64,000 nt of DNA. Source: an uncultured Acidobacteriota bacterium. Its GTDB lineage: Bacteria; Acidobacteriota; UBA6911. A program made the position numbers and the translations under genes. The notes below the pieces were generated by a model. The model had not been told where the DNA came from and ran no database searches. It saw nothing but the letters and a program-made list of their open reading frames with translations. The DNA is taken from NCBI GenBank assembly GCA_963809485.1, contig CAWEJX010000007.1:480001-544000 (forward strand), written 5' to 3'. This document shows, piece by piece, positions 24,154 to 43,590 of this stretch. The first letter of the stretch is position 1; the number at the start of each line of letters is the position of its first letter.

Positions 24154-24972
24154 TTACTCTTTCACTCCGCCTGCTGTCAGGCCGGCAACGATTCGTCTTT
24201 GAAAGACGGCTACCGCAGCAATCAGCGGCGCTGTGCTTACGACTATGCCTGCTGCCAGCAATCCCCAGGGAATCTCATAGGCGAACGCGCCGCTCAGCGT
24301 TGCAACTCCCACTGTCACCGTGCGCGAAGATTCCAGGTTCATGAAAGTCATGGCGAACATGAACTCATTCCATGAAAAAATGAATACCAGAAGAAAAGCG
24401 GTCGTTAACGCGGGAATGGCCAGAGGCATGATGATTTTGCGATACGTGTCGAAGGCCGTCAGGCCGTCGATTGCCGCCGCTTCCTCCAGTTCATACGGAA
24501 TCTGTTCCATATATCCTGTAAGCAGCCATACTGCGAAGGGGAGGTTCAATGCGGCGTAGGGAATGATGAGGCCCCAGGGCTGGTTGACCAGGCCCGCGAA
24601 GCGGACAAGTTCATATACCGGGAATACGAGCACAATAGGAGGGAAAAAGGCCAGGATCAGCAGCAAAGAGGCTATCGTGGAGCGGAAACGTCTCGGAGCT
24701 CTTGCGAGCCTGTATGCGGCAAGGGAGGCGCAGGAAGTACAAAGCAACGCCGCAAGCGCCGCGATCACAATGCTGTTGAGATAATAGGCGGCGAACGGCC
24801 GGCGCAGGAAAAGCCCGGCATAATTATCCAGCGTGAAGCTCGAAGGCAACAAGGAGGGCGGTACCTGTGCAAGCTCCAGGGAGTCTTTGACGGAGGATAT
24901 GCCGTACCACGCCAGCGGAGCTGCCGCGACTGCGCACCAGATCAAAATGAAAAGCCTAGCGACCCATTTCAT
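24154..24972 (-). CDS. carbohydrate ABC transporter permease (MalG-like)
   Basis: EAA motif IPYELEEAAAIDG, WNEF. Confidence 0.93.
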   Translation of the reverse strand: MKWVARLFILIWCAVAAAPLAWYGISSVKDSLELAQVPPSLLPSSFTLDNYAGLFLRRPFAAYYLNSIVIAALAALLCTSCASLAAYRLARAPRRFRSTIASLLLILAFFPPIVLVFPVYELVRFAGLVNQPWGLIIPYAALNLPFAVWLLTGYMEQIPYELEEAAAIDGLTAFDTYRKIIMPLAIPALTTAFLLVFIFSWNEFMFAMTFMNLESSRTVTVGVATLSGAFAYEIPWGLLAAGIVVSTAPLIAAVAVFQRRIVAGLTAGGVKE

Positions 24973-25846
24973 ATTTCCTTGGCAGCAGGGAATAAAGCGC
25001 CCAGGCAGTCAGGGCCAGTACAAGCACGATGGCCACCACAAGCGCGCCGCCGTAACCGAAATCAAGATATCGCATATAGGTATAATAGCCGTATACCGAA
25101 ACCGTCTCTGTCGCGCCGCCCGGTCCCCCCCCGGTCAGCACATAAACCAGATCAAAAACCGCAAAAGCCTGGACGATTCTGAATATCAGCGCCAGGAAAA
25201 TGAACGGCAACAGATAGGGCAGGGTAACATACCTGAATTTATGCCATGCCGTCCCTCCGTCGATCTCGATGGCCTCATACATTTCCTTTGGAATGCACTG
25301 TAGCCCGGCGAGCAGCACGATAAAGACAAAAGGGAAAGCCTTCCAGACGTCGGCCATGATTATGGTGCTCAACGCCGTCTGCGGCCTTCCCAGCCAGGCC
25401 AGCGGCGAGTCCACGATCCCGATTTTCAGGAGCACGGCATTAATAACGCCGTACTGGTCGTTGAAGATCCACATCCAGAGCACCGCTATGATTGCCGTTG
25501 GAAGAGTCCAGGGGATCAGCAGGAAAGTCCGCGCAGTCCGGCGCCCCTTTTTTATTTTTTCTACGGCCAGGGCCAGCAGCAAGCCAAGCAGGAATTCCAG
25601 AGCAACCGAAACGATCGTAAACAAAGCCGTAGTTTTGAGCGAGCTGTGAAAGCGCGAATCTGCGAGGAGCCGGGCGAAATTTCCCAGTCCGGCGAAATGC
25701 GCCTGGAATCCGGTCTCCAGATTGAGATTCAGAAAACTGAGAATCAACGTCCGGAGGATCGGATAAACAAAGATAAGCAGCACCAGTGCGGCTGCAGGTG
25801 TGAACCAGAGGATTTCACGCATTCTTTTGGATACGAGGATGCTCAT
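24956..25846 (-). CDS. carbohydrate ABC transporter permease (MalF-like)
   Basis: ADVWKAFPF, LAGLQCIPKEMYEAIEIDG, TGGGPG. Confidence 0.93.
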   Translation of the reverse strand: MSILVSKRMREILWFTPAAALVLLIFVYPILRTLILSFLNLNLETGFQAHFAGLGNFARLLADSRFHSSLKTTALFTIVSVALEFLLGLLLALAVEKIKKGRRTARTFLLIPWTLPTAIIAVLWMWIFNDQYGVINAVLLKIGIVDSPLAWLGRPQTALSTIIMADVWKAFPFVFIVLLAGLQCIPKEMYEAIEIDGGTAWHKFRYVTLPYLLPFIFLALIFRIVQAFAVFDLVYVLTGGGPGGATETVSVYGYYTYMRYLDFGYGGALVVAIVLVLALTAWALYSLLPRKYEMGR

Positions 25847-25861
25847 GGTGGTTCCCGTACA

Positions 25862-27076
25862 TCACCCTTTCAGAAGAGCGCGAGTCTCCCGCGCCGCTTC
25901 CCTCAGCGCGTCCTCACACGGGATGCGTCCGGTCAGTGCGGCGCTTAACCATCGCTGGAGTATATCCGAAGCCTGCGCGTATTCCGGAATAGAAGGCCGG
26001 GAACGCGCCTTTTCGAAAACAGGCAATAGCTCCGCGGGCACCAGGCTTCTCCGCGAAGGGATTCGGCCCACTTTCTGCTGCACGCGTGTCAACTGCCCGG
26101 AACGAGTCATGTATATCAGGAATTCCCATGCCTTTGCCGGATCCGGGCAAAATCCGGAGATGGCAAATCCCCATCCCCCGAGTGTCGCAGCGCCCGAGTG
26201 TCCCGGCTGATGCACCATGGACGTGAATGCGGTTTTGTCCTTCACCGGCGCGTTACTGCGCTGCATCAGGGACCATACATAAGGCCAGTTGCGAAGAAAC
26301 ACCGCGCGCCCGCTCTGGAACAAAATCCGCGTATCTTCTTCGATATAGCTCGTCACGGCCGGTGGAGATATGGTGCCGATGGTATCCTTTAAAAAATTCA
26401 ATGCCTGGAGCGCCTCCCGCCCGTCTACATAAACCTGCCTTGTCTCCGGATCAATCCAGTCTCCGCCGAACCCCCAGAGAACCTCGAGAAACACGGTGAC
26501 CAGGCCCTCATATTGCTTCCCCTGCCAGAGAAAACCCCAGCGCTCCCTGGTCTGGAGTTCGCGCGACCGCTGAACCAGCTCATCGAAAGTCTGCGGCGGC
26601 TCGGGCAGCAGATCCTTCCGATAGTAAAGCAGGCCTGCATCGGTGAACGCCGGGATGCGGTAAAGACTCCCTTTATAGGACCCCGCTTCGAGTTCCGCGG
26701 GGAGAAAATCCTTGAGGTCTTCCGCTGAGAGACAGCCGGTTAAATCACGGAGCCATCCCGCTGCCGCGAACTTCGCGATCCAGATTGCGTCGCAATAGAC
26801 GATGTCAAAGGCAGATTTCCCGGACAGAAAAGAGGTCGAATAGAGATCTTCCCGCGCATTGGTTGCGGGAGGACCTTCTACCAGGCGCACGCGGGTTCCC
26901 GGATTCAGGCTGTTGAATTCCGTGACAAGCTCGCGCCAGATGCCTGTCCCGTCGGGTTCCATCAAAATCGAAAGCTCCCCGCTAAGGCGTGACGGAGCCA
27001 TCCTCAGGCTGAGGATGATCAATATCGCTATTGCAAGCGCGGCGAAGGCTTTCGCCAGTATCTTTGTCAAAGACAT
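25862..27076 (-). CDS. sugar ABC transporter substrate-binding protein (trehalose/maltose-like)
   Basis: N-terminal hydrophobic anchor, DAGLLYYRKDLL, QGKQYEGL, FLRNWPY, TLGGW. Confidence 0.88.
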   Translation of the reverse strand: MSLTKILAKAFAALAIAILIILSLRMAPSRLSGELSILMEPDGTGIWRELVTEFNSLNPGTRVRLVEGPPATNAREDLYSTSFLSGKSAFDIVYCDAIWIAKFAAAGWLRDLTGCLSAEDLKDFLPAELEAGSYKGSLYRIPAFTDAGLLYYRKDLLPEPPQTFDELVQRSRELQTRERWGFLWQGKQYEGLVTVFLEVLWGFGGDWIDPETRQVYVDGREALQALNFLKDTIGTISPPAVTSYIEEDTRILFQSGRAVFLRNWPYVWSLMQRSNAPVKDKTAFTSMVHQPGHSGAATLGGWGFAISGFCPDPAKAWEFLIYMTRSGQLTRVQQKVGRIPSRRSLVPAELLPVFEKARSRPSIPEYAQASDILQRWLSAALTGRIPCEDALREAARETRALLKG

Positions 27077-28070
27077 GGATGTCCTTAGGTTCGATGTGCA
27101 GCGGTATCGAGTCTGAGGGCGGCCGCTCATCCGAGAGAACCATCAGGGAGACTTCCCCAATTCTTGTATGCACCAGGAATCGAGCGCCGAGGTTTTCGGC
27201 CCAGACGACTTTCGCCGGAATTCCTGTACCTGTTTTGATCGCTTCCGGACGAATACCGATCTTCACGGGTCCGGAGAAATCGAGCCCTGTTTGAATTTCA
27301 TCAGACCCGACGCGAAAAGTGCCCGCTTTTAAAATGACGTCCAGCAGGTTCATTGCCGGCGACCCGATGAATGAGGCTACGAAGAGGTTTTTCGGCATCC
27401 GGTACAGAGCTTCGGGGCTGCTGATCTGCTGGACTTGCCCCCGATCCAAAACGACGGTCCGGTCCGCCAGAGTGGTGGCTTCCACCTGATCGTGTGTGAC
27501 GTAGATTACCGTGGCCTTGAGACGCGAAAAAAGCTCCTTGAGCTCATGACGGACCTTTTCGCGCAAAATCGCGTCGAGGTTGCTAAGCGGTTCATCGAAA
27601 AGAAAAACCTTTGGTTTGCGGATCAATGCCCTTCCCAGGGCGACGCGCTGCCTCTGACCGCCGCTCAACTCGCGCGGTCTCTTCTCGAGCAGGTCTTCGA
27701 TCTCCAGCATCCGGGCGGTCTCGTGTATGCGACGATCGATTTCGGCGCGGGGAGCCTTTTTGAGGACCAGGTTGAGCGCAAGGTTTTCATAGCAGCTCAT
27801 GTGCGGATAAAGAGCATAGGACTGAAAAACCATCGCCACATCGCGCGAACGGGCAGGGATTTCGTTGACCCGCCTGTTTCCTATCCAGATCTCCCCTTCG
27901 GACGGCTGATCGAGACCCGCAATGATGCGGAGAAGTGTCGATTTGCCGCATCCCGAAGGCCCGAGCACCGTCAGTACCTCCTGGTCCCGGATTTCGAAGG
28001 AGACCTCTCTCAGAGCATAAATGCTTCCGGAGAAACGCTTTGAAACGCTCATGCAACGCACAGAAGCCAT
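26982..28070 (-). CDS. sugar ABC transporter ATP-binding protein (MalK-like)
   Basis: GPSGCGKST, VFQSYALYPH, LSGGQRQR, DEPLSNLD, FIGSPAMN. Confidence 0.96.
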   Translation of the reverse strand: MASVRCMSVSKRFSGSIYALREVSFEIRDQEVLTVLGPSGCGKSTLLRIIAGLDQPSEGEIWIGNRRVNEIPARSRDVAMVFQSYALYPHMSCYENLALNLVLKKAPRAEIDRRIHETARMLEIEDLLEKRPRELSGGQRQRVALGRALIRKPKVFLFDEPLSNLDAILREKVRHELKELFSRLKATVIYVTHDQVEATTLADRTVVLDRGQVQQISSPEALYRMPKNLFVASFIGSPAMNLLDVILKAGTFRVGSDEIQTGLDFSGPVKIGIRPEAIKTGTGIPAKVVWAENLGARFLVHTRIGEVSLMVLSDERPPSDSIPLHIEPKDIHVFDKDTGESLRRACNSDIDHPQPEDGSVTP

Positions 28071-33741: not shown

Positions 33742-35040
33742 ATGATCGATCGGTACATGCCTGAGGATTTCACGAAAATCTGGTCGGAAGAAAATATGTA
33801 TCGCACCTGGCTTCGCGTGGAGCTGGAGGTATGCCGCGTCCTGGCCGAAAAAGGGTGGATTCCGGCGGAGTCCATGGAAGTCATTGAGAAGAAAGCGAAT
33901 TTTTCGGCGGCGCGGATCAAGGAAATCGAAAATGTGACTCATCACGACCTGATCGCCTTCACGACCAGCATTGCCGAATTTGTGGGGCCGGATTCCAGGT
34001 ACATCCACTGGGGACTAACATCCACCGATGTGATCGATACGGCCCGCGGCCTTCAGTTCAAGCAGGCGAGCGAGAAAATAGTCGCCGCCATGGACGAGCT
34101 TCGGAAAGCCATTGGGGACCGGTCGCAGGAGCACCGGAAAACTCTGATGATGGGACGGACGCATGGGGTGCATGCGGAGGTGACGACGTTCGGATTGAAG
34201 CTGGCGGTGTGGTACGACGAGATGCGCCGGAACCGCGAACGGATGCTGCGTGCGGCCGAGGCTGTCTGCGTGGGGAAGATCTCCGGCGCCGTGGGGACTT
34301 TTGCCCATCTGGATCCCGATGTGGAGGCGCAGGTTTGCGCGCGGCTGGGACTGAAAGCGGCTCCGGCATCCACTCAAACGCTTCAGAGGGACCGGCACGC
34401 AGAGTACCTTTGCACCATCGCCATTGTCGGCGCCTCCCTGGACAAATTCGCAACCGAAATACGCCATCTTCAGAGAACCGAAGTGCGGGAAGCGGAGGAA
34501 CCCTTTGCCGCAGGGCAGAAAGGATCTTCCGCAATGCCTCATAAGCGCAATCCGATCAAGTGCGAACAGGTGTCGGGATTGTCCCGTCTGCTGCGCGGGT
34601 ACGCCGTGACAGGGCTGGAAAATGTCGCGCTCTGGCATGAAAGGGATATCTCCCACTCATCGGCGGAAAGGGTGATCCTGCCGGATGCGACGGGCGTCCT
34701 CTGTTACCTTCTCCGTGCCATGACGAAAATCATCAGGAAGATGGTGGTGTATCCGGAGCGGATGCTCAAAAACATTGAACTGACCCGGGGTCTGGCATAC
34801 TCCGGCCAGCTGCTTCTGGATCTCACGCGCAAGGGTGTCGTCAGAGAGGACGCCTATCGCTGGATTCAGCGGTGCTCCATGCAGGTGTGGGACGAAGACA
34901 AGGATTTCCTGCAGGTTCTGGAGGCAGACCCTGACATTACAAAGGTCCTTTCCCGGGACGAAATCCGCTCGGTGGTGAATCCGGAGCTTCAGCTGCGCAA
35001 TGTCGACGCCATTTTCACGCGCGTCTTCGATCTCAAATAA
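33742..35040 (+). CDS. purB: adenylosuccinate lyase
   Basis: HWGLTSTD, GRTHGVHAE, GSSAMPHKRNP, HERDISHSS. Confidence 0.98.
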   Translation: MIDRYMPEDFTKIWSEENMYRTWLRVELEVCRVLAEKGWIPAESMEVIEKKANFSAARIKEIENVTHHDLIAFTTSIAEFVGPDSRYIHWGLTSTDVIDTARGLQFKQASEKIVAAMDELRKAIGDRSQEHRKTLMMGRTHGVHAEVTTFGLKLAVWYDEMRRNRERMLRAAEAVCVGKISGAVGTFAHLDPDVEAQVCARLGLKAAPASTQTLQRDRHAEYLCTIAIVGASLDKFATEIRHLQRTEVREAEEPFAAGQKGSSAMPHKRNPIKCEQVSGLSRLLRGYAVTGLENVALWHERDISHSSAERVILPDATGVLCYLLRAMTKIIRKMVVYPERMLKNIELTRGLAYSGQLLLDLTRKGVVREDAYRWIQRCSMQVWDEDKDFLQVLEADPDITKVLSRDEIRSVVNPELQLRNVDAIFTRVFDLK

Positions 35041-35242: not shown

Positions 35243-36898
35243 CTACGGCATGGGGATCGTGATTCCGCGGGCGCGGGCAAATTCCTGCGCTTCGGCATAG
35301 CCGGCATCCGCGTGACGCACCACACCGATCCCCGGATCATTGGTCAGGACGCGCTCAATCCTTCGGTTCATCTCTTCCGTCCCGTCCGCAACCGTGACCT
35401 GGCCCGCATGCAGGGAGTAGCCGATCCCCACGCCGCCCCCATGATGGAAGGAAACCCAGGATGCCCCGCTGGCGGTATTCAACAGGGCATTCAGGATGGG
35501 CCAGTCCGCAACGGCGTCCGAAGTGTCTTTCATTCCTTCGGTCTCCCGGTAGGGAGAGGCGACCGACCCGCAGTCCAGGTGATCCCGCCCCATAACGACC
35601 GGGGCCTTGATTTTTCCGCGCGCGACCAGGTCGTTCAGACGCAGGCCGAAGGCCGCTCTTTCTCCATAGCCGAGCCAGCAGATGCGTGCCGGCAGGCCCT
35701 GAAACCGGATCTTCTCCCTGGCCATCCGGATCCATTCACAGAGGCTTTCGTTCGCGGGAAACATTTCCAGAACCAGATCGTCGGTGAGAGCGATGTCTCG
35801 GGGATCTCCGGATAGCGCGGCCCAGCGGAACGGCCCGCGGCCCTCGCAGAACAGGGGCCTTATATAGGCCGGGACAAAGCCCGGAAAATCAAGCGCATTC
35901 ACGACGCCGGCCTTCAAAGCCTGCCCGCGAATATTGTTCCCGTAATCGAATGTCACTGCGCCGCGCGACTGCAACTCGAGCATCGCCCGGACATGGGTGG
36001 CGATGGAGTCCATGCTCCGCCGCAGATACTCATCCGGATCTTCCCGCCGCAGTCTCGCAGCCTCTTCCAGGGAAATGGCGGCGGGGATATAGCCATTCAA
36101 GGGATCGTGGGCGCTGGTCTGATCGGTCAGGATGTCCGGCGTGAATCCGCGCCGCAAAAGCTCAGGAAGCACATCGGCGCAGTTCCCGACCAGCCCGACC
36201 GACAAGGCTTCGCCTTTTCGCGCCGCGCCTTCGACCAGCGCGAGGGCTTCGTCCAGATCCTGGGACATTTTGTCACAGTAGCCTGTTCTGAGGCGCTTCC
36301 GGATCCGCTCCGGATCCACCTCGATGCCCAGAAACGCGGCGCCGGCCATGGCAGCTGCCAGAGGCTGCGCCCCTCCCATGCCGCCGAGCCCGCCCGACAC
36401 GAGAATCCTGCCTCTCAGGCTGCCTCCAAAATGATGGCGGGCGACCGATGAAAATGTTTCATAGGTGCCCTGGATGATTCCCTGGCTGCCTATATAAATC
36501 CAGCTCCCCGCCGTCATCTGGCCGTACATCATCAATCCCAGAGCCTCCAGACGGCGAAATTCCTCCCAGTTGGCCCAGTGGCCGACTAGATTCGAATTCG
36601 CGATCAGAATTCTCGGTGAATATTCATGCGTACGGAAAACCCCCGCCGGTTTGCCGGACTGGATCAAAAGAGTTTCATCGTTATTGAGGGCGCGAAGAGA
36701 CCGGACGATGGCGTGGTAGCAGTCCCAGTTCCGCGCGGCCCTGCCGCTGCCGCCGTATACAACCAGATCGTCGGGACGCTCCGCAACGTTTTCATCCAGG
36801 TTATTCATCAGCATGCGCAGCGCCGCCTCCTGGGGCCAGCCCTTGCAGCTGATCCCAGGGCCGACCGGCGCATGGATTTTTTGATGGATTCCCGACAT
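35243..36898 (-). CDS. hutU: urocanate hydratase
   Basis: [53 protein letters not shown]. Confidence 0.98.
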
Positions 36899-37288
36899 AA
36901 TAAACTCCCGTAAAAAGTTCGGCTTGACGCTTTCCGTGAATTATGTCCCTATTGGACGGCAGAAGCCAGGATTCGGAAGCCGGAATCGCCGGGAAGGATC
37001 GCTCTGGGATTCCCGGCCTGCTGAAGCCCGGAAGCCCAATCCGCTCAGTTTGGCGATCCGAAAGCCGGAAAGGTTCCATTTGTTGAGGCCTTCAAAGACA
37101 CCGGGATTCGGCTCTGATATAATCGGATTCCGGGCCAGCCGCTGAAGGAGGTGGCCACAGACAGGAGGAATCCCAGCCTTTTGGAGCGCCGGCTAAAACC
37201 CTGGGCCGGCAGAATACGGGTTAAGAAAAGGAATTATATATTTTTCAGGGTGTGTTGACGTTCCTTTGGAACAAATGCTGGAGAGATT

Positions 37289-38665
37289 ATGACGACATTA
37301 ATTAAGAATGGTACCATCATCACGGCCACGGATACCTACAAAGCGGATATCCTGGTGAAGAATGGGATCATTTCCGAAGTCGGGCGGGAAATTTCAAAGA
37401 TAGCCAGCGAGATCATAGATGCGACGGATAAATGGGTTTTGCCCGGCGCCATTGATGTGCATACCCATATCGACACCCAGGCCGACGGAATGACAACCGT
37501 CGATGATTTTGAGACGGGAACGGCTGCTGCCGCGGCTGGCGGAACCACCACAATCATAGATTATGCCGAGCAGGCCCCGGGCGCCACTCTTGCCCAGACG
37601 CTCGAAGACTGGAAATCGAAAGCGGCGCCGCGGTCCATCGTGGATTACGGATTTCACCTCGCTCTGAGTGAAGTAAACGAAAACGTGCTGGCGGAGATTC
37701 CCGCCATGGTGGATGCAGGCGTGAGCAGTTTCCAGGTAAACCTGGACCGCCACGGCGACCGTCACATCAATGACGCGCAATTGCTGGAGTTCCTGCAGCG
37801 CACCGGCGGCGCCGGCGCGCTGCCGTGCGTGCATGCCGAAAACGGGGAAATTATCGATCTTTACCTGCGGCGCCTGCTCGCAGAGGGCAAAACTTCGCCC
37901 AGATACATAACCGCTGCGCGCCCTCCCGAGGTGGAAGCCCAGTCGACGGCCCGCGCCATCAGTATGGCGGACATGGCGAAATCCCCGATGTACCTGACCA
38001 GTCTCTCTTCCGCGCATGCGATCGAAAAGGTCAAGATAGCCAGAGACCGCGGCCAGTTGGTCTTTACGGAAACCTGCTCCCACTATCTGGTGATGCCGTG
38101 CGAGCGGTATGACGAGCCGGAAGGAATCAAGTATTCCTGCTCGCCTCCCCTCAGGCCTTCCTGGCATGCGGATGTGCTCTGGAAAGCGATTGCGAGCGGC
38201 GACATTCACGCCATTGGGAGCGGTCACTGGGCATTCAACTACGCGGGACAGAAGGACCTGGGCAAGGAAAACTTCACTCAGGCGCCGTACGGCTTTCCCG
38301 GAATTCAGGAGCGCCTGTCCGTGTTGTGCTCGGCCGGCGTTCACGGCGGGAGGATTTCGGCGAATCGGCTGGTCGACCTGATATGCACGTCCCCGGCCAA
38401 GCTGTTCGGCATTTTCCCGCGCAAGGGGACCCTGGCGGTCGGGAGCGACGCGGACATGGTCGTCTTCGATCCCAAGGTGGAAACGGTGCTTTCGAAAGCC
38501 CTGAGCCTTTCCCGCTCGGACTACACGCCTTACGAAGGGATGAGAGTGCGCGGCGCCACTTGGCTTGTGCTCCAGCGCGGAAGAGTCATTGCCCGCGAGA
38601 GCAGGGTCATGGGACGCCCGGGAAGCGGCGAATTCCTGCCTCGGGCCCGGTTCAGCATGCCCTAG
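37289..38665 (+). CDS. dihydropyrimidinase/hydantoinase homologue with degenerate active site (pseudoenzyme candidate)
   Basis: IDVHTH, AGGTTTIID, VHAENG, KGTLAVGSDADMV retained; SFK>SFQ, VVH>LTS and TDH/SDH>SGH substitutions. Confidence 0.88.
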   Translation: MTTLIKNGTIITATDTYKADILVKNGIISEVGREISKIASEIIDATDKWVLPGAIDVHTHIDTQADGMTTVDDFETGTAAAAAGGTTTIIDYAEQAPGATLAQTLEDWKSKAAPRSIVDYGFHLALSEVNENVLAEIPAMVDAGVSSFQVNLDRHGDRHINDAQLLEFLQRTGGAGALPCVHAENGEIIDLYLRRLLAEGKTSPRYITAARPPEVEAQSTARAISMADMAKSPMYLTSLSSAHAIEKVKIARDRGQLVFTETCSHYLVMPCERYDEPEGIKYSCSPPLRPSWHADVLWKAIASGDIHAIGSGHWAFNYAGQKDLGKENFTQAPYGFPGIQERLSVLCSAGVHGGRISANRLVDLICTSPAKLFGIFPRKGTLAVGSDADMVVFDPKVETVLSKALSLSRSDYTPYEGMRVRGATWLVLQRGRVIARESRVMGRPGSGEFLPRARFSMP

Positions 38666-38783
38666 GCGATGCTGCGCCGGAACGGAGACGGAGGAGCGAG
38701 GTTCCGGCCTATTCGGTTTTGGACTGCCGCGATCGGTTCGCTGCGTTGTTGAACCTGGTGCGGTGTGCTATGGTGCTACTCTG

Positions 38784-40604
38784 ATGAGAGAGTGTCCGCA
38801 GTGCCATAATGCTTATCCCGAGCCGTTCCACTATTGCCCCGCAGACGGTTCCGAGCTGGGCGAAAACAAGGAGGAGCCGGGACTCAAGGTCTCGCCGCGC
38901 GAGCCCGCCACCATAAGGGTTCGAACTCTCATGCTGGCATTCGGGGTCCTCGTGCTTTCCTTCCTCGTGGCCCTTGGCATTGCCTTTTTCTACCAGGATT
39001 TGAAGCCCAAATATGGGACTCTGACCATAAAAACCACACCGCCCGGGGCGATGATCTGGGTGGATGGGAAGCAAAGGGGCGTTTCCCCCATAACGATCCA
39101 GGATTTGCGCAGCGGCCGGCATTCCCTGAAGGGGGCTAAAGAGGGATACAAGGAAAGGATCCAGGAGATTCCCGTTCAGCCCTATGAATCCCAAAGCGTG
39201 CACTGGGATCTGGAGCCGATTGTTCCGCAGCTAAGCAACGAACAACTGGCTGAAGTCGAGTTTCTGAAAAAGAAGCTGGAGAGCGCACAGAAAGAGAACA
39301 TACTTTTTCCGCCTCCCGAAGACTACAACGTCCTTTTTTTCGCCAACAAAATCCTCTCCATCGATCCCAAAAACAGTTCTGCGCTCGAGGCCAAAGAAAA
39401 AATGGCGGCGATGATTCGCCGGGATGCGGAATCCGCCTATGCCCGCGAGGACTGGCTGGAGTCGGAAAAACAATACAAAAACCTTGCTCTGCTCTTGCCG
39501 GACGACATCTCGATCGGGGAACGCCTCACAGATGTTGCCGCAAAGCTCGACGCAAGCGTAAAGGACCGCGAGCAGCAGATTCAGGACTGGACGGCGAAAG
39601 CGGATGCCGCGCTGAAAGTGGGAAGCCTGCTCCCGCCGGACAAGGATAATGCCTACGACGCCATACGGAGCATCCAGCGCCTGGACAGAAACAACAGCTA
39701 TGCCCGCGAGGCTACCGCTCATCTCAAGGAGCTGCTCCAGAACCGGGGAGACACCAAGATCGCCGCTTCCGAATGGCAGGGCGCCCGCAGCGATTTCAGG
39801 CTGATGCTGCAGTATTTTCCCGAGGACAATTACAGCAAAGCCCGTCTGGCCTTTGTCGAATCCAGGATCGCGGAAATTTCTCAGTTGGAGCAGCAGCGGG
39901 CAATCCGCACAGCCGAGGAGCAGCAGTCCAGGCAGAAAACCTCAGCCCTGCGCCAATCAGCGCTCAGCTCGTTTCGCGCCGGCCTTTATCAAAAGTCTAT
40001 TTCCGAGTGGCAGGAATACCTGAAGATCGAACCCAACAGCGACGAAGCTTATTTTTACCTGGGGGCAAGTTATCAGGATTTGAAACAGCTGGATACCGCC
40101 ATTCTGAATTTTGAAAAGTGCCTTTCCATAAACCCCAATAATGCCCTGGCTCATCTGAATCTGGGACTGCTCTACGATTATCATCGCGACAGCCTCAAGA
40201 AGGCGGAGGAGCATCTCAGAAAAGCGAAGGATCTCGGCGGGGCCGAGAAATACAGTCCCGACCGGCTTCAGGCCATGATCCAGGATCTGCAGGACCGGGC
40301 TCAGGCAATCTCCGTGGTAAAAAAGCCCTTCGCCGTCGAACACCGGCATGCCTTTTCCAGCTGCCGGGGGAGTCTCTATCTTGCGGACGAAGGCATCGAG
40401 TACAGAACGACGGAAACGGATCACAGCTTCTACGAACCCTACAAAGAACTGCGGAGCTTGTCTCTGGATGGCAACGAGCTCTCCATCCGGACACGGAATA
40501 ACAAGAGATACAACTTCCACCTGCTCAACGCGGGAGATGCAGCCCGAATCCGCGCATGGCACCTGTCTTCGCGACAGATCCAGATCAACGGACGGGCCGA
40601 GTAG
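38784..40604 (+). CDS. membrane protein: zinc ribbon - TM - PEGA - TPR repeats - C-terminal beta domain
   Basis: MRECPQC...CPADG; TM helix; GTLTIKTTPPGAMIWVDG..G.SP (PEGA); AYFYLG/AHLNLG TPRs. Confidence 0.85.
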   Translation: MRECPQCHNAYPEPFHYCPADGSELGENKEEPGLKVSPREPATIRVRTLMLAFGVLVLSFLVALGIAFFYQDLKPKYGTLTIKTTPPGAMIWVDGKQRGVSPITIQDLRSGRHSLKGAKEGYKERIQEIPVQPYESQSVHWDLEPIVPQLSNEQLAEVEFLKKKLESAQKENILFPPPEDYNVLFFANKILSIDPKNSSALEAKEKMAAMIRRDAESAYAREDWLESEKQYKNLALLLPDDISIGERLTDVAAKLDASVKDREQQIQDWTAKADAALKVGSLLPPDKDNAYDAIRSIQRLDRNNSYAREATAHLKELLQNRGDTKIAASEWQGARSDFRLMLQYFPEDNYSKARLAFVESRIAEISQLEQQRAIRTAEEQQSRQKTSALRQSALSSFRAGLYQKSISEWQEYLKIEPNSDEAYFYLGASYQDLKQLDTAILNFEKCLSINPNNALAHLNLGLLYDYHRDSLKKAEEHLRKAKDLGGAEKYSPDRLQAMIQDLQDRAQAISVVKKPFAVEHRHAFSSCRGSLYLADEGIEYRTTETDHSFYEPYKELRSLSLDGNELSIRTRNNKRYNFHLLNAGDAARIRAWHLSSRQIQINGRAE

Positions 40605-40751: not shown

Positions 40752-42527
40752 CTACAGCTTTGTGCGTCCCGTGCTTGAATGGGAATCCGGCGGATGCGCC
40801 GAATCCCGCTTCTCGGGGGCATGAGTCTTCTTGGAGCGCCTGAAGACTCCGACGATGCCGAAAAGCATAAATCCTATGATGGCCCCGACGGCCAGCGGGA
40901 CAGGGTGAAGGTACCCTCGCAGCTGACGGACTGCATTTGAGGAATTCACCGTGTGCTGCTGCTGCAACAGCCCGATCTCATCGGAATTCCTGTTGATCAG
41001 CCGGGCTGTGAGGACGAGTTCGGCGTCCTGAGTTCCCTGATTGCGTATGCTCCAGCGCCAGGAGGAGCGGTCGCGCTCCCCGATCTCGTGGACCGATTCG
41101 CCCTGTTCCGGCCTGACGAGCATGGTGGCGGAACCGGAGACCAGATCCACTCGCATTTTCAGCCGCTCTCCCAAGGTGCTCAGGATATGCCTTTCCTCGG
41201 GCGTAACGCGCACAAAGTCGATGGATTCGGCTGAGAAATTGACGATGCCGCTTTTATCGGCATTGTGATTCAGGTTGGCCGGGAAGCTCCAGTCCAAGGT
41301 GCCCAGCAGCGTGTTTTTTAAATAAACCTGGGATTTGCCCCGGCGGACCCCTCCCTCCGTCTTTTCCTCCACCACGCGTGTGCGGAGCGACCGGACGGAC
41401 TGGGCGTAATCATCAAGCTTCTCCTTGGCTTTTTTGAGATCGAGGTACTGTTTGGCGAGCGAGTCCTCCTTGGATGTCAGGGTGCTGATTGTGCTCTGCA
41501 TCTGGCGATTGCTCGATTTTATCTCTTCGTTGTCGCTCACAAGGCGCGCATTGGCAGCCCGCTGGGCGTTGAGGTCCGTTTGCAGCGCGCCTGCCTGAGC
41601 TTCCAGGCCCTCGTTGTCCTTTTGCAGTTTCCTCATGGCCTGGCCCAGCTCCGCAATCTGCATCGTGAGGTCGCGGCCCGCGTCCACTTTGAGATTCAGC
41701 GAACGCTGGAGATTCGCCAACTCCCTCTGGTAGCCCCGCGCGGTTCCCCTGGCGTCGCGGAGCTCATCCCCCAGTTTGGTGACCTGGGATTCCGAGCTGT
41801 CGATCTTCTCCTGCAGCGCCGCATGAGAGCTCTTCAGGCGGGAATACTCCGATTGAAGGCTTTTTAGTTCGGCGTCCCGCTTGCGGTTCTCGGATTGAGA
41901 CTGGCTAAGCTGTGCGGAAATGTCCTGCAGCCTGTTCTTGAGGGTATCAATTTCACGCTGCGCTTCCTGAAACGCGGGCACATTGGGCGCGATATTCTTG
42001 AGGACGGATTCACGGCTGATGGATGCGGAAACGGCGATCTCGCGCACGGACCGCTCAAACTGCTCCTTGACAAAATCCTGCTTTGCGTCCTCGATATCCG
42101 TGTACTTCAGGCCTTCGGTAAAGGTGGACTGGAGCGACCTGTCAAAGATGTCCCGGTTTGGAAACGACTCCTGCAGATCGGCGTCGAACCTGAATCCGAT
42201 CTCGACGAAGCCCGAAGCGGCAATCGCGCCCAGCCTGAACTTGACCTCATTGCTTCCGAAATCCACGAGAAGAATCCGGAGCTGGTCTCCGACTTTAAAG
42301 CGAGGTTCCCCGCTGCCCGGCTCCACCCGATAGGTCTGCCCGCTAATGGTGACGACCTGTTTCAGACCGTAGACCGGGATTTTCAGAAAAATGGCCTTAT
42401 TTTCATAATCCCGCTTGTATTGTTCCTGGATGGAGCGTGAGACGCCGGCGAAACTGCCCGCTATGCCTGCAAGCATGAACAGCATCAGACAGGAAATCCT
42501 AAAAGGGTATTTCTGGCTGGATTGCAT
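40752..42527 (-). CDS. exported coiled-coil protein with C-terminal membrane anchor
   Basis: Signal-like N-terminus, about 190 aa heptad-rich segment, C-terminal LAVGAIIGFMLFGIVGVF followed by RRSKK. Confidence 0.8.
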   Translation of the reverse strand: MQSSQKYPFRISCLMLFMLAGIAGSFAGVSRSIQEQYKRDYENKAIFLKIPVYGLKQVVTISGQTYRVEPGSGEPRFKVGDQLRILLVDFGSNEVKFRLGAIAASGFVEIGFRFDADLQESFPNRDIFDRSLQSTFTEGLKYTDIEDAKQDFVKEQFERSVREIAVSASISRESVLKNIAPNVPAFQEAQREIDTLKNRLQDISAQLSQSQSENRKRDAELKSLQSEYSRLKSSHAALQEKIDSSESQVTKLGDELRDARGTARGYQRELANLQRSLNLKVDAGRDLTMQIAELGQAMRKLQKDNEGLEAQAGALQTDLNAQRAANARLVSDNEEIKSSNRQMQSTISTLTSKEDSLAKQYLDLKKAKEKLDDYAQSVRSLRTRVVEEKTEGGVRRGKSQVYLKNTLLGTLDWSFPANLNHNADKSGIVNFSAESIDFVRVTPEERHILSTLGERLKMRVDLVSGSATMLVRPEQGESVHEIGERDRSSWRWSIRNQGTQDAELVLTARLINRNSDEIGLLQQQHTVNSSNAVRQLRGYLHPVPLAVGAIIGFMLFGIVGVFRRSKKTHAPEKRDSAHPPDSHSSTGRTKL

Positions 42528-42861
42528 GGCTATCCTCGATCTATCAAGATCCCGATTGTGCAATACCGTTGTGCAATGCTCACAACAGGAAAATCCATGA
42601 TAACACAGAGCTACAGCTTTGAGACTCGGAGCCTTTGAGGTTCGCCCGCTTATCCGCCACGGCTCCGGGGCATGAGGAATTTTCCCGCTTCGGCACCGAA
42701 TGCGGCTCTCCATGGATTTTTTTATGTTAATAGTTACGATCCAGGATGCAGAAGAGTATCATGGCGCTTATCCCTTGAAGATTTCCGGGATCGTGCTTCC
42801 CTGCTCTCCGGATTTCGTCTGTGAAGGGTGATGAACCGAGCCTGTGAATAGGAGCCTTTAA

Positions 42862-43590
42862 TTGCGTATCGAATACGGCATTCGGAGTGATCAGGGGAGA
42901 GTCCGGGCTTCCAACGAGGATGCGTGTGTCGCCAGCATCGGCAGCAGAGTTTTTCTTGTGGCCGACGGCATGGGCGGTCACGCTGCCGGGGAAATTGCCA
43001 GCCAGATTGCAGCATCGACGGTCGAGGAAATTATCGCAGGCAGCACCCTCGACCCCGATATGGAAAGCCTGCTGCAACGGTCGGCAAGGGCAGCGAATGC
43101 CCGTGTCTATGAAACCCAGAAACTCCGGCCCGATTACAGGGGGATGGGAAGCACCCTCACCGTGCTGGCGATCCGGGACGACCATTTCTATGTCGCGCAG
43201 GTGGGGGATTCCAGGGCGTACCTTTTGCGGGACGGAGTCCTGGATCAAATTACGCGCGACCATTCCCTGGTTTGGCCGTTGTATGAAAGCGGCGTAATTT
43301 CAAAAGATGATATTTCCCGGCATCCTCAAAAGAATCTCATTACAAGGTCCATCGGGACGCACGCCGAAGTGGAGGCCGACCTGCACAGCGGCGCTGCGCT
43401 CGCGGGCGATGTTTTTCTACTGTGCTCGGATGGTCTGACGGACGTGCTGTCCGAGCGGGAAATCCTGCAAATCCTGTCGCTCGAGGGCCGTAACCCCCAG
43501 GATTTGTGCGATGCTCTGGTTCAAGCGGCAAACGCAGGCGGCGGCCCGGATAATGTGACAACCATTGTCGTGCGCCTTCTGCCAGATTAA
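42862..43590 (+). CDS. PP2C-family Ser/Thr phosphatase (Stp1/PrpC type)
   Basis: RASNED, VADGMGGH..GE.AS, GMGST, VGDSRAY, LLCSDGL, GGPDNVT; TTG start. Confidence 0.95.
   Translation: MRIEYGIRSDQGRVRASNEDACVASIGSRVFLVADGMGGHAAGEIASQIAASTVEEIIAGSTLDPDMESLLQRSARAANARVYETQKLRPDYRGMGSTLTVLAIRDDHFYVAQVGDSRAYLLRDGVLDQITRDHSLVWPLYESGVISKDDISRHPQKNLITRSIGTHAEVEADLHSGAALAGDVFLLCSDGLTDVLSEREILQILSLEGRNPQDLCDALVQAANAGGGPDNVTTIVVRLLPD

Follow-up and report, generated by a model that had tools for sequence, protein, structure and literature searches.

A conserved dihydropyrimidinase-fold protein family of uncultured Acidobacteriota in which the catalytic metal centre has eroded

What becomes of a cyclic amidohydrolase that keeps its whole fold while the residues holding its catalytic metals disappear? 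This question is raised by a gene at positions 37289–38665 (+) of a 64,000-nucleotide stretch of DNA, here called the window, from an uncultured Acidobacteriota bacterium of the UBA6911 lineage (assembly GCA_963809485.1, contig CAWEJX010000007.1, positions 480,001 to 544,000 of the forward strand), described as a soil bacterium. The original prediction, made from the letters of the window alone, took the product for a bacterial pseudoenzyme resembling the animal CRMP proteins, selected for a non-enzymatic role. Our analysis confirms the observation behind that proposal and supports its interpretation in part: the gene is a real, conserved variant of a known fold, mis-named by automatic annotation, and we lean, with modest confidence, towards viewing it as a descendant of a bacterial hydantoinase that binds with its pocket and no longer hydrolyses, convergent with the CRMPs.

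The gene and its fold are intact, as had been claimed. Its 458 codons translate from an ATG without a stop, a ribosome-binding site read from the sequence (GGAGAG, 37280–37285, +) lies 3 bases ahead of the start, and the N-terminus MTTLIKNGT is common to all full-length orthologues. The protein scores 523.4 bits against the NCBIfam model TIGR02033 for D-hydantoinase/dihydropyrimidinase (cut-off 393.25) and 74 bits against Pfam Amidohydro_1. Its best solved relative is the bacterial D-hydantoinase 1k1d (phmmer E 2.1e-131, 442 bits), and the alignment spans residues 1–458 of the 460 residues of that enzyme, the window protein stopping with the core. The AlphaFold model, built from a 114-row alignment, reached a mean pLDDT of 97.1 and superimposes on 1k1d with a TM score of 0.98 and an rmsd of 1.3 Å (Foldseek; CRMPs, TM 0.95–0.97), with 41–44% identity to bacterial D-hydantoinases (e.g., PDB 1k1d, 1yny, 3sfw). 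The two-domain architecture of the dihydropyrimidinase family, a TIM barrel plus a beta-sandwich, is present, and by descent the closest known system is the bacterial D-hydantoinase/dihydropyrimidinase (EC 3.5.2.2), which shares this fold from end to end.

The catalytic apparatus departs from this picture. Residue correspondence was taken from the phmmer alignment to 1k1d, whose numbering is used for canonical residues. Three of the six metal ligands are kept, namely the HxH of barrel strand 1 (IDVHTH, codons 58–60, 37460–37468, +) and the strand-5 His of VHAENG (codon 182, 37832–37834, +; His183 of 1k1d). The other three are replaced, as had been read from the letters and as both alignment and codons now show: the carbamylated Lys150 by Gln (codon 149, CAG, 37733–37735, +; SSFQV on ITSLKV), the strand-6 His239 by Ser (codon 238, AGT, 38000–38002, +; MYLTSL on LYVVHV) and the catalytic Asp315 by Gly (codon 312, GGT, 38222–38224, +; GSGHW on GSDQC). 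The six-ligand string is consequently H-H-Q-H-S-G against the canonical HHKHHD. In the predicted model the residues at ligand positions sit, as they should, at the C-terminal ends of strands 54–59, 147–151, 178–182, 234–237 and 308–310, which correspond to the expected barrel strands 1, 4, 5, 6 and 8. No Lys, His or Asp that might compensate was seen close to the lost ligands in the alignment, and His313, next to Gly312, is not special, being found in 91% of canonical enzymes too. Residues 155 (Tyr) and 337 (Asn) of 1k1d, which we take to position the substrate, have changed as well, to Arg154 (37748–37750, +) and Tyr334 (38288–38290, +); the human DPYS counterparts are named Y164 and N347 in a recent preprint (bioRxiv 10.64898/2026.06.14.731825). 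Besides the HxH and the His of HAEN, the protein retains SPPLR and the majority of the structural motifs. It cannot assemble the canonical binuclear centre. By sequence model and fold it belongs to the dihydropyrimidinase/D-hydantoinase family and by catalytic apparatus it does not; the canonical reaction is excluded for the window protein and very unlikely for its relatives.

These relatives do not repeat the pattern of the window protein, contrary to the expectation that orthologues would share the Lys to Gln, His to Ser and Asp to Gly replacements. A word-indexed search listed 120 clusters at 73–84% identity, mostly from soil and wetland metagenomes, and among these listed matches the string HHQHSG is confined to the window protein. 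The strand-6 His is the only ligand lost throughout (Ser 71, Asn 37, Thr 7, Gly 4, Lys 1, His 0); the Lys position is mostly His (His 103, Lys 12, Gln 3, Tyr 1, Arg 1), and the Asp is nearly always kept (Asp 116, Ala 2, Gly 1, Ser 1). In a FastTree phylogeny of 202 distinct sequences, the 159 non-canonical tips formed one clade with no canonical sequence within it. Over these tips, site 149 reads His 127, Lys 25, Gln 4, Tyr 2 and Arg 1, with Lys149 retained in a basal subgroup; site 238 reads Ser 87, Asn 54, Gly 8, Thr 7 and one each of Cys, Asp and Lys, with no His; and site 312 reads Asp 146, Cys 7, Ala 3 and one each of Gly, Glu and Ser. His58 is found in 158/159 tips, and His60 and His182 in 155/159 each. 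Most members keep four to five of the six ligands and have lost one or two, the common string being HHHHSD, with HHKHND as a Lys-keeping form.

Canonical relatives behave differently. The control set comprised one genome per species scanned plus further genomes, giving 82 locus rows whose hit reached 400 aa or more. All 43 non-clade rows (28–48% identical, from many phyla) read HHKHHD and keep four more conserved residues (Tyr, His, Asn and Glu), Tyr155, Asn337 and Glu343 among them, whereas neither HHKHHD nor the strand-6 His occurs in any of the 38 clade rows (3 of them repeat copies of the same contigs). Since every one of the 43 non-clade loci keeps all six ligands, the losses in the clade are not a matter of chance. 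Few columns conserved in canonical sequences have switched in the clade (G47D, K149H, Y154G, H207I, V237T, H238S and E340Q), and they include the active-site positions 149, 154 and 238. At position 154, 84% of canonical sequences have Tyr where 86% of the clade has Gly; at position 334, Arg in the clade takes the place of the canonical Asn; and the loop after the HxH (62–71), variable in canonical enzymes, is 98–100% conserved in the clade. When 401 genomes sampled evenly across the phylum were compared, hits at or above 67% identity came only from the window's own GTDB family, where 5 of 6 other genomes had one, and the best matches in the remaining genomes were no higher than 51% (the tally counts one unpublished genome, G024, with a 46% hit outside the clade). 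The clade has been seen solely in this one uncultured Acidobacteriota family. One of the 82 rows, L094 (G377:C248; 51% identical), from a genome of the same class, reads HHKHCD: the strand-6 His position holds Cys, and Tyr155 is replaced by Asn. That genome also has a canonical 46% copy (L095, G377:C334), and L094 itself resembles an intermediate on the way to the clade or a sister to it.

The replacements are not a sign of decay, as the original prediction had also argued. Against L003, a 95%-identical orthologue, the window gene has a dN/dS of 0.081 (21.5 non-synonymous and 72.5 synonymous differences), and its flanking genes over the same divergence give 0.10 (PurB), 0.06 (HutU), 0.17 (M16 peptidase), 0.20 (metallo-beta-lactamase fold) and 0.15 (a 653-aa neighbour). 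Across 61 clade pairs with dS between 0.05 and 1.5, dN/dS ranged from 0.04 to 0.30 (median 0.15), most of the closest pairs lying at 0.04–0.09. The gene is under strong purifying selection; moreover, because selection is strong and the close orthologues are themselves non-canonical, the picture of one aberrant, relaxed copy among canonical ones does not apply. Catalytic residues lost under purifying selection, the sequence side of the operational definition of a pseudoenzyme, are what the window gene displays. In the clade as a whole, 188 of the 458 columns are at least 97% conserved, and parsimony on the tree yields a median of 7 changes per site with 68 sites that never change. None of the six ligand sites belongs to this invariant core: the minimum number of changes is 22 at site 238, 9 at 149, 6 at 312, 3 each at 60 and 182, and 1 at 58. 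The former ligand positions change at ordinary rates while the rest of the protein is conserved, and for this reason hydrolysis of dihydropyrimidines or hydantoins has most likely been lost.

How recent are the last of these changes? Nine mates share the window protein's 90% cluster at 95–98% identity; Cys312 is present in 9/9 and His149 in 7/7 of those covering the site. Contigs of four other public runs differ at base 37735: X1 and X3 have G (Gln), X2 and X6 have C (His), and Gln149 can be regarded as a natural polymorphism because two of these runs carry it. At base 38222, T (Cys) is found in X2, X3 and X6, X1 having no coverage there. Gly312 has been seen in the window assembly alone, no run sharing more than 0.51 of the gene's words. 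As the window protein is closer to most mates (97.4–98.3%) than the L003 protein is (95.4%), a change from Cys to Gly in the window lineage would be the simpler path. Both Gln149 and Gly312 are late changes at the level of the strain, the background being His149/Cys312. The general base itself has been lost for good in a lineage under selection, given Cys312 in all nine mates and in three independent runs. RNA runs share only 0.05–0.08 of the gene's words.

The radical changes in the species cluster fall at pocket positions or beside them. Among the eight members of the species cluster, radical changes at clade-conserved sites are only G154R, Y283S, D312C/G and R334Y, the other ten departures from clade-conserved residues being conservative swaps. 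Three of the four sites are the Tyr155, Asp315 and Asn337 positions, and the fourth, Ser at codon 283 (38135–38137, +), lies two residues ahead of the conserved SPPLR serine. Arg154 is found in 8/8 members, as are Ser283 and Tyr334, where 97% of the rest of the clade has Tyr and Arg, respectively; one pocket Arg is in this manner retained, at either 334 or 154.

The comparison with animal CRMP/DPYSL proteins, central to the original prediction, holds for the state of the protein and fails for its ancestry. The likeness consists in a dihydropyrimidinase fold that is kept and metal ligands that are lost, and by analogy the window protein would work most like a CRMP/DPYSL protein while not being a member of that family. 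CRMP/DPYSL proteins carry a long C-terminal regulatory tail beyond the hydantoinase core. The window protein has no such tail (458 aa against 570–586 aa for CRMP chains) and is of independent origin, the clade nesting among bacterial sequences. Its top five PDB matches are hydantoinases, with no CRMP among them, and its phmmer scores are 398–442 bits for bacterial D-hydantoinases against 278–306 for CRMPs. The original prediction suggested that CRMP1 also reads SFQV and GSGH; a 40-aa query around SFQV retrieved no CRMP or hydantoinase chain at E ≤ 10. Because bacterial hydantoinases score higher and a CRMP-type tail is missing, the likeness is one of convergence, not kinship. According to its structural description, CRMP-4 keeps the pocket and two of the six ligands, with Leu165 in place of the bridging Lys (PMC4051505), where the window protein, with three ligands, has Gln and most clade members, with four to five, have His. 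DPYSL2 is described in the preprint as a pseudoenzyme binding dihydrouracil (bioRxiv 10.64898/2026.06.14.731825).

The metabolic setting in the host genome (6.04 Mb, 95.7% complete, 7.3% contamination) was considered as well. No second dihydropyrimidinase-like gene and no canonical dihydropyrimidinase was found in it, and the sole paralogue is a 29%-identical dihydroorotase (PyrC) with intact ligands (HxH, His, His, Asp). Beside PyrC lies an open reading frame with STRTR and HPTQ motifs, which by eye we take to be carbamoyltransferase-like. A PreA-type dihydropyrimidine dehydrogenase was not detected above cut-off (best 138.5 against 335; F420-type reductases were not searched), nor was a TIGR01879 carbamoylase (36.5 against 204; nitrilase-type ureidopropionases were not searched). 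By the queries used, the genome has no reductive pyrimidine pathway and would have no pathway need for a dihydropyrimidinase. Two substitute roles could be ruled out. Replacement of HutI, suggested by the divergent urocanase gene upstream, is contradicted by the host's own HutI (contig 6, 466.6 bits) and HutH (673 bits), the window gene scoring only 22 bits on HutI and urocanase occurring in only 10 of 36 clade loci; a substitute dihydroorotase or PyrC'-like partner is contradicted by a sole paralogue that is a canonical dihydroorotase beside the carbamoyltransferase-like frame.

The clade descends from a bacterial D-hydantoinase/dihydropyrimidinase and gave up the binuclear metal centre, in an order of steps inferred by combining the tree with tiers of identity. 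Replacement would have begun with the strand-6 His and with Tyr155 and Asn337, the substrate clamps; the carbamylated Lys would then have become His in most members, the catalytic Asp would have become Cys in the window's species, and in the window's strain Cys would have changed to Gly and His149 to Gln. The clade as observed is a natural series of active-site erosion, in which Lys is kept, then replaced by His, then Asp gives way to Cys and finally to Gly. The remodelled pocket probably binds, and does not cleave, a small, probably anionic ring compound, or the protein may act through a partner. Ligand positions that drift, the fixed loss of the Asp, the lack of a constant pathway partner, changes confined to the pocket and the one Arg that is retained together tip our judgement, without much force, towards a pocket-binding derivative that no longer hydrolyses. 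The proposed non-enzymatic role is borne out as far as the missing binuclear centre and purifying selection go; that catalysis is absent, and that binding is what has been retained, we infer from sequence. A bolder version is tentative, and we doubt it more than we credit it: the clade as the first prokaryotic counterpart of the CRMPs, a hydantoinase turned, without any link to the animal case, into a metabolite-sensing pseudoenzyme whose old active site senses an anionic ring derived from pyrimidines, hydantoins or histidine, the pocket being retuned in the window's species by four coordinated substitutions, G154R, Y283S, D312C/G and R334Y.

Several observations weigh against a loss of catalysis and lend themselves to a different explanation, to which we assign a real but clearly minor share of the probability: a working enzyme with a remodelled single alpha-site metal (HxH, His/Lys149 and Asp/Cys312) or a metal-free site, acting on a new, probably carboxylated substrate, of which the window allele would be a weakened or null form. 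The HxH, His182 and Asp312 are retained in 92–99% of the 159 tips, well beyond the two of six ligands of CRMP-4, a pattern that suits a single-metal site, and PMC3880350 reports that the type-I dihydroorotase of Aquifex aeolicus is fully active without beta-site histidines, on its alpha metal alone, a model for possible catalysis in the Lys-keeping subgroup. In that subgroup (11 loci), a class-III aminotransferase gene lies 14–330 bp directly upstream on the same strand in 5 loci, a uridine kinase (278 bits) is nearby in 3 plus one partial locus and DeoC (265 bits) in 3, both above cut-off, and a family-III CoA-transferase in 2; these surroundings resemble a small catabolic operon. The pocket Arg kept at 334 or 154 and the invariant loop after the HxH also suit an enzyme, and Cys312 could still hold a metal. 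Furthermore, odd residues in metagenome sequences may partly be errors, and in one 99% complete genome of the same genus (L108, G220:C12, 4939–8134) the PEGA/TPR gene comes 29 bp behind PurB and the hydantoinase-like gene is cleanly absent, so that its role is dispensable there. On the other side, the Aquifex enzyme keeps its alpha-site ligands and catalytic Asp, whereas the window protein has neither the Asp nor the bridging residue and the clade varies at both. No ligand position is among the 68 sites that never change, with at least 6 replacements of Asp312 and at least 9 at site 149, while canonical relatives are invariant at the ligand sites in 43/43 loci. L033, one of the loci with the aminotransferase neighbour, itself reads HQ at the HxH, and L036 reads HR; the window allele lacks both the general base and the 149 ligand, yet its dN/dS is as low as that of its neighbours; and across the 36 clade loci no specific neighbour is constant, the conserved ones being housekeeping genes.

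The remaining explanations fare worse. That the protein is an ordinary dihydropyrimidinase/D-hydantoinase, as its automatic name and its TIGR02033 score (523 against a cut-off of 393) have it, and as JGI labels many clade members, is scarcely credible: the ligand pattern contradicts it, with three of six ligands and both Tyr155 and Asn337 replaced, the strand-6 His is in no clade member, and the PreA-type dehydrogenase and TIGR01879 carbamoylase stay below cut-off in the genome. Onset of decay in the window copy, with relaxed selection after a loss of function, could account for two of the roughly 21 non-synonymous differences from L003 falling on ligand positions, for a Gly312 found in no other sequence, for the same-genus genome devoid of the gene and for one frameshifted clade locus (L046); an intact frame, a dN/dS over the same divergence as low as in PurB and HutU, the absence of any window residue departing from clade columns at least 95% conserved, and the recurrence of Gln149 in contigs of two other runs make it very improbable. 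There is likewise little chance that the protein serves an active paralogue or some other enzyme as an inactive subunit, structural or regulatory, one of the roles first proposed. A bacterial precedent exists, the nearest for any inactive cyclic amidohydrolase, in the conserved pseudo-dihydroorotase PyrC' of Pseudomonas, which PMC7053772 describes as needed as a structural subunit of aspartate transcarbamoylase, and both the highly conserved N-terminal part and the presence of PurB upstream in 22/36 loci fit a partner. Unlike PyrC', however, the window gene belongs to another subfamily and has no pyrB linkage; the genome offers no canonical dihydropyrimidinase as partner, only the 29%-identical dihydroorotase with its own ligands; and the spacing to PurB is variable, with HutU in between in some loci.

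The immediate consequence is one of annotation, since the automatic name dihydropyrimidinase would wrongly credit an Acidobacteriota family with a step of pyrimidine degradation. If the clade is indeed non-catalytic, the conversion from enzyme to binding protein undergone by animal CRMPs also occurred in bacteria, and the erosion series that it leaves could help to tell apart the residues needed to bind metal, to bind a ligand and to keep the fold stable. If it is enzymatic instead, His at the strand-4 position would be an arrangement of which we know no example among described amidohydrolase metal centres. The biological pay-off is moderate because the organisms are uncultured. The open-access literature yielded no description of a bacterial ligand-less dihydropyrimidinase clade, and the UBA6911 genome paper makes no mention of dihydropyrimidinase, pyrimidine, hydantoin, uracil or histidine.

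Concerning the surroundings of the gene, adenylosuccinate lyase PurB (33742–35040, +; Lyase_1 and ADSL_C domains) is its usual upstream neighbour and a PEGA/TPR-repeat protein (38565–40604, +; Pfam PEGA and TPR domains) its usual downstream one, found in 25 of 36 clade loci; urocanase HutU (35243–36898, −; three urocanase Pfam domains), divergent and 390 bp upstream in the window, occurs in the fetched flank of 10. As listed, with a TTG start, the PEGA/TPR frame runs over the final 100 bases of the hydantoinase-like gene; its real start is probably further downstream. The conserved block runs from RlmN through the M16 peptidase, the metallo-beta-lactamase fold protein, PurB, the hydantoinase-like gene and the PEGA/TPR gene to the 653-aa protein, and continues past it with a 178-aa protein, YggS, Tmk and HolB. 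The 653-aa protein, coiled-coil-like with a sub-threshold CENP-F hit only, and the 178-aa protein, without a Pfam family, are encoded at 40752–43263 (−) and adjoin the PEGA/TPR gene in most clade loci. In the region upstream of the hydantoinase-like gene, Rfam gave 0 matches at E ≤ 1 and a promoter scan one promoter-like site, not above shuffled sequence.

Some further loci deserve mention. In the Lys-keeping subgroup, L008 (5594–11638) carries in succession a 291-aa protein, the class-III aminotransferase, the hydantoinase-like gene, the family-III CoA-transferase and DeoC, with related loci in L033, L011, L012 and L024; in other loci of the subgroup the uridine kinase is on the opposite strand. 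The match in L046 (8001–9376, 1376 bases) has 8 stops in one frame, the mark of a frameshifted pseudogene or else of an indel in the assembly. The nearest 150 representatives of 50%-identity clusters comprised 131 canonical sequences and 19 lacking at least one of the six ligands, with patterns such as NRQQRD, QSERPQ, HYRRPA, NCQHKA and HRLHKA (P0130–P0279), some of them maybe alignment or fragment artefacts; ligand-poor dihydropyrimidinase-like proteins may, on these patterns, exist in several other bacterial lineages. Elsewhere in the window, a four-gene sugar-type ABC transporter (24154–28070, −) consists of a MalK-like ATPase, a solute-binding protein and two permeases.

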